Below, piece by piece: positions 4,205 through 63,869 of a stretch of 64,000 bases of DNA. The notes under the pieces are model-generated. The model ran no database searches. It saw only the letters and a list, made by a program, of their open reading frames with translations, and was not told the origin of the DNA. Each line of letters starts with the position of its first letter. Position 1 is the stretch's first letter. A program made the position numbers and the translations under genes. This DNA comes from Octopus vulgaris (Eukaryota): the NCBI GenBank assembly GCA_951406725.2, contig OX597823.1, positions 94,240,001-94,304,000 on the forward strand. Reading direction: 5' to 3'.

Positions 4205-5493
4205 TAGAAGGTACATTCCAGATGTTTTGAGACTTTTTCAGGAGAGACATTTAAAGCAGCAAAAAGCGTCAGTCAAAGTAGGATCTTCTGACTTTAATCC
4301 ACTTGTATCGCTTCAGCCATTTTCTAAAGGCACCATGGAACTCTCCAGAGTGAAGATGTCCAGAACCCTTGCCGTGGCCCCTAAGCTTCTCTTTCAACCA
4401 AAAAATCAATGAAAACAAGGCCTGGAGTATAGCGAAAGCTAGGGAAAACCAATTTAGGTAACCACTTCTGTCAAGTAGCTGGTTACCAGGATGGCATTGT
4501 GGACTGGTGCATTGTCCTGGTGCAGGTGCCATTTACTCAAGTGGAAGAGCTCAAACCTTTCGCAACGAAATTTCCCTCATGAACTCCCTCAAAAGTACCA
4601 CAAAGAAATTTGTATACCGTTTGGCCAGAGGGAACCCATTGTATGCAGATTGTGCCCTTGCTGACAAAATAGGAGATCATCATGATCTTCCCAGTGGACA
4701 TGCTTTTTCTTGCCTTTTTCGGTCTAGGGGAGCCAGGATGCTTCCATTGCTCATTCTGTCTCTTGGTCTCTGGTCCATAACAGTAGACCCAGCTTTCGTC
4801 ACATGTTACCAGAGACTCAAGCACTCTTGGATTAGAGGTAATGAGTTCAACCATCTCCCCGATGCCACCAACCCGTCTTTCTTTCTGTTCATCACTGAGT
4901 ACCCAGCGAACGCACTTTGCACAAATGTTGCGCCCGTTTAGATCTTTATAATTAAATCGATAGACAGTTGTCACAGCAAATCCATTCTCTATGCTTATTG
5001 TCTTCATAGACACGAGACAGTCTTCATCCAGAAAACTGACTTTCCTCAAAAAATTTGATTCTCTAAGGCCTCTCTTCCTCTCACATCCCTCATCTTCTCT
5101 CATCTCCTCTCTGCCGTCCTTGAACCACTTGTGCCAGTGAATAACATTTATTTGGCTCATGCAAGTTAATCCATAATCAGTCTGGAGAATTTCATAAGCT
5201 TCTGAAGCGTCTGAGCCAAGTTTAACACAAAATTTTATTGCAGAGCGAGCTTCCGAATCGTCTTCACGTGCTGACTGCATTCTGTTAAATAGTCAGCTGT
5301 GACAAGCAGTGTTTAGTAGTGTATGTGTGTTCAATGTGTTGTTTCAGCTGTCTCATTCGATTTGGAATAAACAAAAGTTGGTGGCAGGTCAGCTTATTAC
5401 ATGTATAGTAATTATATACTAAAATTACAATTTTCTTAGACAGTTATATTTGCTTCTCCTAAAATTTTCTGAAACCTTCTGAAATGCATCTCG
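4205..5493 (-). mobile_element. Decayed mariner (DD34D-type) DNA transposon
   Basis: Degenerate TIRs (tagaaggtacattccagatg...ttcaggagag versus reverse complement tacgagatgcatttcagaagg...ttaggagaag) enclose a transposase ORF. Confidence 0.8.
4440..5280 (-). pseudogene. Mariner transposase pseudogene
   Basis: ORF 4537-5280 has an N-terminal HTH (AIKFCVKLG...WHKWFKDGRE), VTCDESWVYCY (first catalytic D) and WKHPGSPRPKK. The second-D motif WHLHQDNAPVH is in a shifted frame. The YSPDLAP/third-D region is not recognisable. Confidence 0.88.
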
Positions 5494-37589: not shown

Positions 37590-37800
37590 TCAGTAACTAA
37601 CGCTTGATTCAACTCCTTACACTGTCAAGTGGTCCATAATCACCCACACCAAGCCTTACAGCAGCTATGATAACAAGTGTGACCTCTGCATAGCCGAGGT
37701 CATGGTTATTTTGCAATCCACGGATTGTCCCAGTGAAGCCAGCGGTATAATAGTCACCTGCGGACATCGGTCACTAAATCAATTCTCAAAATACCAATAA
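37590..37800 (+). pseudogene. Penelope-like element endonuclease C-terminal remnant
   Basis: YTVKWSIITHTKPYSSYDNKCDLCIAEVMVIL...IIVTCGHR fits the recalled PLE pattern Y.IKW.I...PY...C.LC..EK..I...CRH. Confidence 0.65.
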
Positions 37801-58819: not shown

Positions 58820-58913
58820 AATTATTATCTCTAGTCTTTTGTAGTTACTGTATCAGTTGAGTATACAAATAGATTATGCGCTTCTTTCTCGGGGATGGAT
58901 CAAACTTATGGAT

Positions 58914-58957
58914 TCATCTCTGACGAGAATTCGATAAAATTCGAAAATCGATTAATG
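58914..58957 (+). ncRNA. Minimal type-I hammerhead ribozyme motif (weak stem I)
   Basis: CUGACGA (58920-58926), stem II gaauu/aauuc, GAAA (58943-58946), palindromic stem III AAUCGAUU, cleavage triplet UUA. Confidence 0.6.
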
Positions 58958-59550
58958 TTCTTCTTTAATCTACACATAAGCTACTAAATTAACCCTATTT
59001 ATATTCGTACTATATAGGTTACAATATCTACACAAAATATTCATGTTGTGACCAGGCGATGACCATATAAACATACTGATGCTGTATTCTCAATTTCAGT
59101 TTTGATTTAGTAAAATTTAAAAAATCATTTATGCATCAGAAAAATGCAAAACAAAGATTAAAATTCCGGAGATTAAAAAATTATTTCTTTCAAAAGTTTA
59201 GCCATATGCAATATGAAAGAAAAAGAAACAGATAAAGACAAAATGTGAAAAAATTCGAAAGGATATTTATGCTTAGAGTTAGATATGTTTGCGTTAAATT
59301 TATGCACTGTATTTGAAAACACTATTTCTTCTCCGTGTCAGGTATCCATCCTATCAACATCTATTATACTCATTATATAAAACCACATATTCAACAAACA
59401 TTTAAACACTAGAAAGGTTTCTATCTAAGCAATGTGTACAACCATTTTCACCATGAAATATGCTTGAGGCGTATTCGAACATACAAGAAAGCCATGCACT
59501 GTGTTTTGTTATGAAGGAAATTTCTTGTTGTAGACAAATATGTGTATATT

Positions 59551-61254: not shown

Positions 61255-61656
61255 AGTCAACATATCATCGAACTATACTTGGTGATTTTAAACTCAGGAG
61301 TCTTATTGGTTTGATTTAGTTCAATGCAAATTTATCCTGAAGAGTGTTTGTCTGAAACTCAGAGCGATATATTTTGACTGTGATTCCATTTCATTGAGTG
61401 CTGTTTCGTTTGACTTGTGACAATTGATCAACCACTCAAATGTGTCTCTGTGTGTATAAATACATATATACGGAGCCTATGGAGTAGATTACATGACAAG
61501 CGCTAATTTAGCCGTTTCTCTGTAAACAAGATAAAATGGCGAACAACCTGAATCGATTTTCGAATCTTGTTGGATTCTCATCAGAGGTGTCTGCATCGGT
61601 TTGACCAATCCTAGATGCACAGAGAGAGAGGGGGGAGAGAGAGAGAGAAAGAACGA

Positions 61657-62973: not shown

Positions 62974-63141
62974 CCTATCTATAAATTTTCTAAAATCTAC
63001 TCAGCCTTGGTTTTTTTTATCTCATTACGAAAAAAATTTATATATATATATATATAGACATATATGTATATACACACATATATATGTATGTATATGTATA
63101 TATATATATATATATATTATTCATATATATATATATATATA

Positions 63142-63212
<71 letters not shown>

Positions 63213-63259
63213 GTGAATTGAAGAAATGGAGCTGAACGCAGATTGAACAGAAATCGTTT

Positions 63260-63353
63260 TATTTCATTCTACACGTGTTTCGAAAGGCACAAATTACCAA
63301 AATCCGATGGAATAATGGGACCATATTGTGTCTTTCTCTTCAGGAAGAAAATA
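63260..63353 (-). ncRNA. Type-I hammerhead ribozyme, mirror copy
   Basis: Exact reverse complement of 63509-63602 within the left arm. Confidence 0.82.
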
Positions 63354-63508
63354 GAAATCCGTTGGAAAAACAAAAACAGAACAGAGGCGGAGCAGCCACC
63401 GGTTCTCAACATACACTGATAAACAGTTTCGCCATGGGCTCTTAGGAGCATAGTTCGATTTGTTTTTGCTCCGCCTCTGTTCTGTTTTTGTTTTTCCAAC
63501 GGATTTCC

Positions 63509-63602
63509 TATTTTCTTCCTGAAGAGAAAGACACAATATGGTCCCATTATTCCATCGGATTTTGGTAATTTGTGCCTTTCGAAACACGTGTAGAATGAAA
63601 TA
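63509..63602 (+). ncRNA. Type-I hammerhead ribozyme, canonical core
   Basis: Stem I uauuuucuuc/gaaugaaaua (9 of 10 pairs incl. G-U), CUGAAGA (63519-63525), stem II gaaagacacaa/uugugccuuuc (10 of 11), GAAA (63581-63584), palindromic stem III ACACGUGU, GUA cleavage after 63592. Confidence 0.82.
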
Positions 63603-63810
63603 AAACGATTTCTGTTCAATCTGCGTTCAGCTCCATTTCTTCAATTCACCAATAATGTTCTAATTTCAATTATCCGCACCAACGCACGGTTGCAACACCA
63701 TATGGTTATACCTCCAACCGTGCTGTTTTACTGCTGTGATTTTTGCTACTAAGGTATCGGTTAAACTTTTGATTAATCTACTACAAGATTATTCATCTTT
63801 CTATTTCACA

Positions 63811-63848
<38 letters not shown>

Positions 63849-63869
63849 CATATATATATGTATGTATAT

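Follow-up and report, generated by a model that had tools for sequence, protein, structure and literature searches.

How does a pair of nearly identical arms in opposite orientation, each bearing a hammerhead ribozyme motif, come to lie among TA repeats in the genome of Octopus vulgaris? Such a palindrome is found near one end of the window, the whole 64,000-nt stretch of DNA that was analysed (contig OX597823.1, assembly GCA_951406725.2). The inverted arms at 63206-63394 (189 nt) and 63467-63656 (190 nt), the one indel that is their sole difference, and the 72-nt spacer between them had all been described in an earlier note on this DNA, and all were confirmed. The boundaries given there hold for the inverted repeat but not for the extent of the insertion, since the spacer and another 158 nt rightward to 63814 also belong to it.

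The whole insertion, 63206-63814, is flanked on both sides by (TA)n target tracts (63039-63207 on the left and 63815-63869 on the right) and consists of a head-to-head pair of fragments, both 5'-truncated, from the end repeat (pLTR) that belongs to an autonomous Penelope-like element (PLE). Counted from the ATG of the element's ORF, the piece on the minus strand (63206-63394), here called the short-end arm, spans -393 to -204, and its 3' end merges into the (TA)n tract. The piece on the plus strand (63395-63814), the long-end arm, spans -465 to -46 and takes in both the spacer and the 158-nt tail past the inverted repeat. The two arms meet at 63393-63396, where they overlap by 2 nt of microhomology, and the spacer exists because the longer arm extends past the reach of its partner. 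A recent insertion had been proposed, and this was borne out by the right (long-end) arm, which is identical to a full-length unit (locus L082) at all but one of its 420 positions (419/420). The locus itself is one ordinary product of the element's insertion process.

A Penelope-like parent element

A pattern taken from the spacer led to the parent element, which occurs as tandem 3,624-bp units, each with an 895-codon ORF that is open at five distinct loci on one contig after removal of duplicates. The genome search for an adjacent Penelope ORF or for tandem arrays, as the earlier note had suggested, was rewarded on both counts, as arms of longer copies continue into the reverse transcriptase (RT) ORF and the 3.6-kb coding units stand in tandem. 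It is almost certain that the locus derives from a PLE, and this part of the proposed origin is supported, but the non-coding or retrozyme-like unit that went with it is not, because the arms are pieces of a coding element and their junction is specific to the insertion. Traits of PLEs found here include tandem and partial-tandem copies that form pLTRs, an inverted truncated copy, a one-sided tail, and a hammerhead in the pLTR. The predicted fold of the 895-residue protein (pLDDT 72.8) has telomerases as its top Foldseek matches (E 3.8e-09), and sequence searches of Pfam and PDB with this protein gave no match naming it. C-terminal motifs of a putative GIY-YIG endonuclease align with those of homologues and with the description of Hydra elements; no domain-specific profile or fold match was obtained for them. 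A sister family encodes a protein with 72% identity to the product of the 895-codon ORF.

Judged by its motifs, the parent element appears to be Hydra-like rather than a strict member of the Hydra clade. With that clade, which includes Hydra-1_Obim (PMC8557442, in the part of that text available), it shares the DKT motif, similar RT motifs by eye, CxxC and CxH around a conserved E and N with no CCHH (again by eye), insertion into (TA)n, a CUGAAGA hammerhead, and an aquatic invertebrate host. It differs from the clade, as described in the same partial text, in reading RWL at the position of the RWK motif (the sister family does so too, and most aligned homologues keep RWK), in carrying a long low-complexity insert in place of the CxCX5C linker before the endonuclease, in size (895 residues versus about 700, and a 3.6-kb unit versus less than 3 kb), and in a different hammerhead with a longer stem II, and the family is distinct from Hydra-1_Obim. 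The CxCX5C linker is absent from both the 895-residue protein and the sister ORF (L293:2714-5434, minus strand), and it is present in 14 of 15 aligned homologues, the fifteenth being a partial protein. The low-complexity stretch that replaces it is one of two long disordered inserts in the ORF (residues ~490-563 and 635-770; L082:6161-8860, minus strand), and N-rich linker inserts have been described in rotifer PLEs (PMC3846280, available text). The linker was proposed to aim insertion at (TA)n, yet the element and the sister family, both without it, both insert into (TA)n.

Two further observations concern other elements. The stretch at window 37618-37713 has a weak match to the endonuclease end of the 895-residue protein (34% identity, E 0.006) and is perhaps an old relative, and next to the tandem array (L083:4520-6460) two ORF pieces from an RT-like element unrelated to this one point in opposite directions and form another inverted pair.

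Hammerhead motifs and their predicted folds

A hammerhead motif is present on each strand, as had been reported, at 63509-63602 on the plus strand (CUGAAGA from 63519, predicted cut 63592/63593) and, as its mirror, at 63260-63353 on the minus strand (CUGAAGA from 63343, predicted cut 63270/63269). The plus copy, which is assigned from sequence, an Rfam scan, covariation, and folding, comprises stem I (63509-63518 with 63593-63602), the core (63519-63525), stem II (63526-63536 with 63570-63580), GAAA (63581-63584), and a palindromic stem III (63584-63591). Its classification as type I with a short palindromic stem III, of 2 bp, is supported. The lengths given for stem II (11 bp) and stem I (10 bp) are correct, but perfect pairing is not found, as a single A-C mismatch interrupts stem II, and stem I contains one C-U mismatch as well as one G-U pair. 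Similarly, AATAAA does lie near the cut but not straight after it, being located at 63599-63604 within the 3' strand of stem I; element copies run ~57 and ~215 nt past AATAAA and then straight into (TA)n, and it is not their end point.

The proposed check against Rfam Hammerhead_1 gave a weak match in a scan of 181 nt (14.8 bits, E 0.69, with the gathering score of 34 not reached); the 45-position model cannot accommodate the long stem II. Over 5 kb, the Rfam scan gave no hammerhead match and just hairpin-driven microRNA matches under the gathering score. A pattern of core plus stem III has 2,082 matches genome-wide versus 0 for the reversed control, so that the motif is not a chance occurrence. 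The expected conservation among genomic copies was found in the form of a conserved core, three stems, and compensatory change: in a sister-family alignment of 16 rows, 95% of cells at eight core-proximal pairs are paired, and double-sided changes fill 26 cells versus 8.0 in shuffles (reached in 0 of 500), the 16 rows being related to each other. The number of pairs with double-sided change, 4 versus 3.6 in shuffles, is not above the shuffled level among these 16 related rows.

As a monomer, stem III has a predicted probability of 0.02, a folding prediction that fits the dimer-dependent PLE hammerheads described in the accessible part of PMC4209133. By analogy with other PLEs, in which this is established, the ribozyme of the parent element probably acts as a dimer or with the help of protein. 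In stem II (63526-63580), an A-C mismatch or a bulged C is kept four to six pairs from the core (loci L293, L294, L295, and L301), across sister families with otherwise differing stems, and possibly marks a tertiary or protein contact. At least three further diverged families in the same genome (L294-L304) share the hammerhead core and the palindromic stem III but differ in stems I and II. Two more hammerhead-like motifs in the window are minimal, stem II being short and stem III palindromic, and lie at 58908-58960 on the plus strand (core 58920; no Rfam match) and at ~61543-61596 on the minus strand (core 61584; Rfam HH9, 13.8 bits, E 0.77). They are unrelated in sequence to the 63206-63814 family and are probably remnants of other Penelope-like families.

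A long hairpin had been anticipated to compete with ribozyme folding, and such competition is indeed predicted. Whichever strand is read through, the RNA would fold into a hairpin of 189 bp, with a predicted probability of 0.0 for stem II, and the predicted minimum free energies of the read-through RNAs are about -404 and -408 kcal/mol versus -7.3 for the hammerhead fold. The idea that the arrangement acts as a switch between self-cleavage and double-stranded RNA is not supported, as this predicted gap of several hundred kcal/mol would give a one-way lock and no toggle. An RNA starting at 63425 is without the antisense arm, and for it stem II is predicted at 0.56 and stem I at 0.0.

A hotspot of arm junctions at the predicted cut was considered as a genomic proxy for cleavage and was not supported after controls. 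The pattern matches that are junctions amount to 12 of 17 at -267 (11 insertions), 3 of 3 at -250, and 20 of 26 at -288. Symmetric joins occur in 5 insertions at the cut versus 17 in the stretch just upstream, where the pattern was wider, and 10 of these 17 fall on two 8-nt palindromes. At the present locus, both arms span the uncut site, so the template was uncleaved there, and the ribozymes would appear to be passengers in the insertion process.

Arm pairing and the template RNA

The layout of this locus recurs throughout the family. A 23-mer has 1,226 exact matches, and the first 100 of them along the genome fall into 61 clusters, 60 of which were examined, the 61st being a tandem array. 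Two head-to-head arms are present in 47 of the 60 clusters, and all 47 combine an end near -45 with an end near -204; the 13 clusters without a mixed pair consist of 12 single arms and one arm with an odd partner, and like-end pairs number 0. Across all loci collected, including selected sets, the 123 distinct junctions comprise 112 mixed, 1 short-short, 0 long-long, and 10 complex cases, and in the sister family 19 of 20 junctions are mixed, at homologous sites. The arms thus have two fixed ends about 160 nt apart: among anchored arm ends, 52 lie at -49 to -45 and 52 at -210 to -198, and both continue into (TA)n. In the window, these positions correspond on the plus strand to a putative outer start zone of reverse transcription at 63811-63815, where long-end arms stop, and a putative inner start zone at 63650-63662, where short-end arms stop.

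Of 44 simple junctions, 22 have the short-end arm extending further 5' and 14 the long-end arm, and in the remaining 8 the 5' ends of the two arms fall within 20 nt of each other (1.8 expected). In 8 of the 44, the long-end arm stops short of -204 and the arms do not overlap. Because the arms are not nested, neither can be a general copy of the other. Microhomology from arm overlap at the junctions is mostly 1-7 nt, and the position of the junction differs between insertions. The same junction, -435 joined to -92, was seen at L134, L137, and L140, on different contigs, and could reflect either a favoured microhomology or the copying of one insertion.

One position stands out among the 5' ends, as 61 arms have -435 as their first position, preceded by a base that differs from the reference and is G in 45, A in 12, and T in 4. 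At three other sites, G was found at 5 of 35 junctions, versus the 45 of 61 at -435 (Fisher p 1.3e-8). When 30 of the 61 matches at -435 were inspected, 29 were true junctions, and among 22 G's inspected by eye, 13 are not explained by the partner arm and 9 could come from it. Long-end and short-end arms alike carry the extra G: a script assigned 10 cases to the former and 12 to the latter, and of those 12 one can be seen to be long-end and another is ambiguous. In L1 and SVA, it is accepted that an untemplated G shows the cap to have been copied (PMC4859970, partial text). We infer that the element produces a capped sense transcript that starts at window 63425 (-435, plus strand), in an initiator-like context, and that an arm of either type can be a primary cDNA. 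The long arm of the present locus begins 30 nt upstream of -435, so its template was probably the 3' repeat in a transcript of greater length. Just past the putative start lies a three-codon upstream ORF (63434-63445, plus strand), which is also conserved in the sister-family alignment.

Sequence variants bear on where the two arms came from. Recurrent variants are found in both arms in 68 cases and in one arm in 10 (87% shared versus 16% with shuffled partners), and arm divergence is 0.31% within versus 1.39% between insertions. Singleton variants number 45, with 28 in one arm only and 17 in both, the latter indicating that some later conversion or rare sources contribute. The shared recurrent variants and the mostly one-sided singletons point to a common source rather than wholesale conversion, and a common source does not imply one molecule. 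That arm ends sometimes coincide was weighed as proof that one template molecule had been used, an argument weakened by the symmetric joins borne by palindromes and by the lengths of the arms, which show no overall correlation (rho 0.22, p 0.15, at the 44 simple junctions).

A candidate 5'-UTR intron, with a donor-like site at -106 (window 63754 onward; L082 ~5250-5330) and an acceptor-like site near -28, is kept in the sister family; the outer priming site would fall within it, which could explain the retention of the intron. No spliced joint for this candidate was seen in the contigs of four public RNA runs, which are of uncertain type and give coverage without joints, uninformative on starts, ends, strand, and cutting. 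Among the public runs listed, 19 of 24 contain at least half of the sampled words, and all are contigs.

Models of insertion

We consider it likely that both nicked strands of the target primed reverse transcription at two fixed sites on a sense RNA. The putative GIY-YIG nuclease of the element would nick both strands of (TA)n, after which the two target 3' ends would act as primers at separate places, about -45 for one and about -204 for the other. Both cDNAs would extend toward the 5' end of the RNA, each stopping independently or at the cap, and would then be joined through short microhomology. That both primings come from a single RNA molecule has, in our estimation, an even chance. A broader rule for PLEs, put forward with slightly less than even confidence, is obligate paired priming, in which a dimer of the protein would bind a single capped sense RNA at two fixed sites and give one site to each nicked strand, every complete event then yielding one long-end and one short-end cDNA.

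The closest biochemical parallel is the anole PLE protein, PAc (Poseidon of Anolis carolinensis), which in vitro cuts and extends both strands from two internal start sites that bound the tail, with an AT-rich target and uncut RNA as template, as in the present family (PMC11167929, available part). The start sites of PAc lie inside the ORF, whereas those proposed here lie upstream of the ATG. The same partial text gives no difference in start sites between the strands and neither assigns one site to each insertion end nor explains the inversion, and with equal start sites on the two strands, strict one-of-each pairing is not predicted by that work alone.

A variant that shares the probability of this explanation has the two primings on two separate RNAs from one active source locus, one per protein subunit, and we hold it as a tentative but substantial possibility. 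Two RNAs would accommodate arms that overlap in template position, for which a single RNA would need strand displacement, as well as the uncorrelated arm lengths, and the shared variants need just a shared source locus. They sit less well with the excess of coinciding 5' ends, which is also seen away from start and cut sites (4 of 40 within 5 nt versus 0.4 expected, with one insertion mis-paired in that set), and strict one-of-each pairing would be easier if one RNA presents both sites. A different origin of the arms is offered by self-priming, in which one cDNA or antisense RNA folds at a palindrome and copies itself, and a nuclease trims the second end to give the tail. Self-priming on an antisense template is the published model for head-to-head pLTRs in rotifer PLEs, with a sense template left open (PMC3846280, in the text available), and it accounts both for the palindromes favoured by symmetric joins (10 of the 17 just upstream of the cut site) and for variants common to both arms. 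A folded-back copy must, however, sit inside its template, which does not agree with short-end arms that are the further 5' at half of the simple junctions or with the 8 of 44 in which the arms do not overlap, and the G added at one fixed start, in arms of either type, indicates that the template was a capped sense RNA. Self-priming is an unlikely origin for these arms, and it may account for a minority of the symmetric cases.

The earlier proposal, in which a Penelope- or retrozyme-like unit without coding capacity alternates, through its hairpin, between cutting itself and forming double-stranded RNA, draws on a locus that encodes no protein (no match to the 895-residue protein nearby), on two intact motifs, and on the very stable hairpin that read-through RNA would form. 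We judge it very unlikely, since junctions that are specific to each insertion mean that the palindrome is not copied as a unit, and since the energy gap gives a lock. The retrozymes described in the available text of PMC7229834 and bioRxiv 10.64898/2026.07.22.740005 (metazoan, non-LTR) share with these arms a type-I hammerhead, a 2-bp stem III, a palindromic loop, and a link to pLTRs, but they are head-to-tail arrays of short non-coding units, whereas the arms here are a head-to-head pair from a coding element and the sole arrays seen are of 3.6-kb coding units. Each junction being a one-off product, there is no sign that the twin-ribozyme arrangement is selected. Palindromes beside microsatellites are hard to assemble. 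An assembly artefact, or arm identity from later gene conversion, is nevertheless highly improbable, as the arms are asymmetric and differ by an indel, 112 loci with distinct junctions, as well as the sister family, show this layout, and the 28 of 45 singleton variants confined to one arm argue against conversion. Units of ~450 bp with near-perfect arms and TA flanks at many sites resemble a MITE-like DNA transposon with long terminal inverted repeats that inserts at TA. This reading, to which we give next to no credence, was refuted, as the apparently fixed size came from the query used, one arm runs ~160 nt further to (TA)n, the ends are asymmetric, the centres differ per copy, and longer copies continue into the RT ORF.

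Priming from both nicked strands at two fixed sites, the explanation that we favour, can be compared with L1 twin priming, in which the second primer anneals at variable sites and the two parts are mostly non-overlapping; here, unlike in L1, both sites are fixed and the arms usually overlap. What the two would have in common is the use of two primers to give an inverted 5' part and the extra G that marks a capped template (PMC4859970, partial text). Inverted pLTRs and opposite-strand hammerhead pairs are already known, and the value of the present data is in the insertion statistics. Inverted-pLTR insertions of EN+ PLEs, as given in the available parts of PMC8557442, PMC3846280, and PMC2377424, have the same partial tandems, inverted 5'-truncated copy, one-sided tail, hammerhead in the pLTR, and simple-repeat targets, and in Schistosoma PLEs, opposite-strand hammerhead pairs lie ~100-700 bp apart (PMC4209133, available text). 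Against the published PLE insertions in those partial texts, the tail is ~160 nt here versus 30-40 nt, and both fixed ends lie upstream of the ATG here and inside the ORF there. One-of-each pairing and counts of cap-type G were not found in the available portions of the PLE literature on inverted pLTRs, and no published twin-priming or cap-G account for PLEs was found by titles and abstract openings, with most subscription work, including key early Penelope papers, outside this coverage.

The origin of inverted PLE ends is described as an open matter in the accessible parts of PMC8557442, PMC3846280, and PMC11167929. If the rule of obligate paired priming is true, it would account at once for the tail, for the inverted pLTR, and for ribozyme pairs placed head to head, and would replace the model of antisense self-priming, and this family would follow the rule with a spacing of 160 nt and without the zinc-finger linker thought to aim insertion at (TA)n. 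PLEs are the closest mobile relatives of telomerase, and the hundreds of near-identical insertions in this genome discriminate between models of how they insert. They also point to the putative RNA sites involved, namely, the start at -435 and the priming sites at -204 and -45. For the host, many such insertions would yield long perfect hairpins under read-through transcription, and these may be substrates for RNA editing or silencing.
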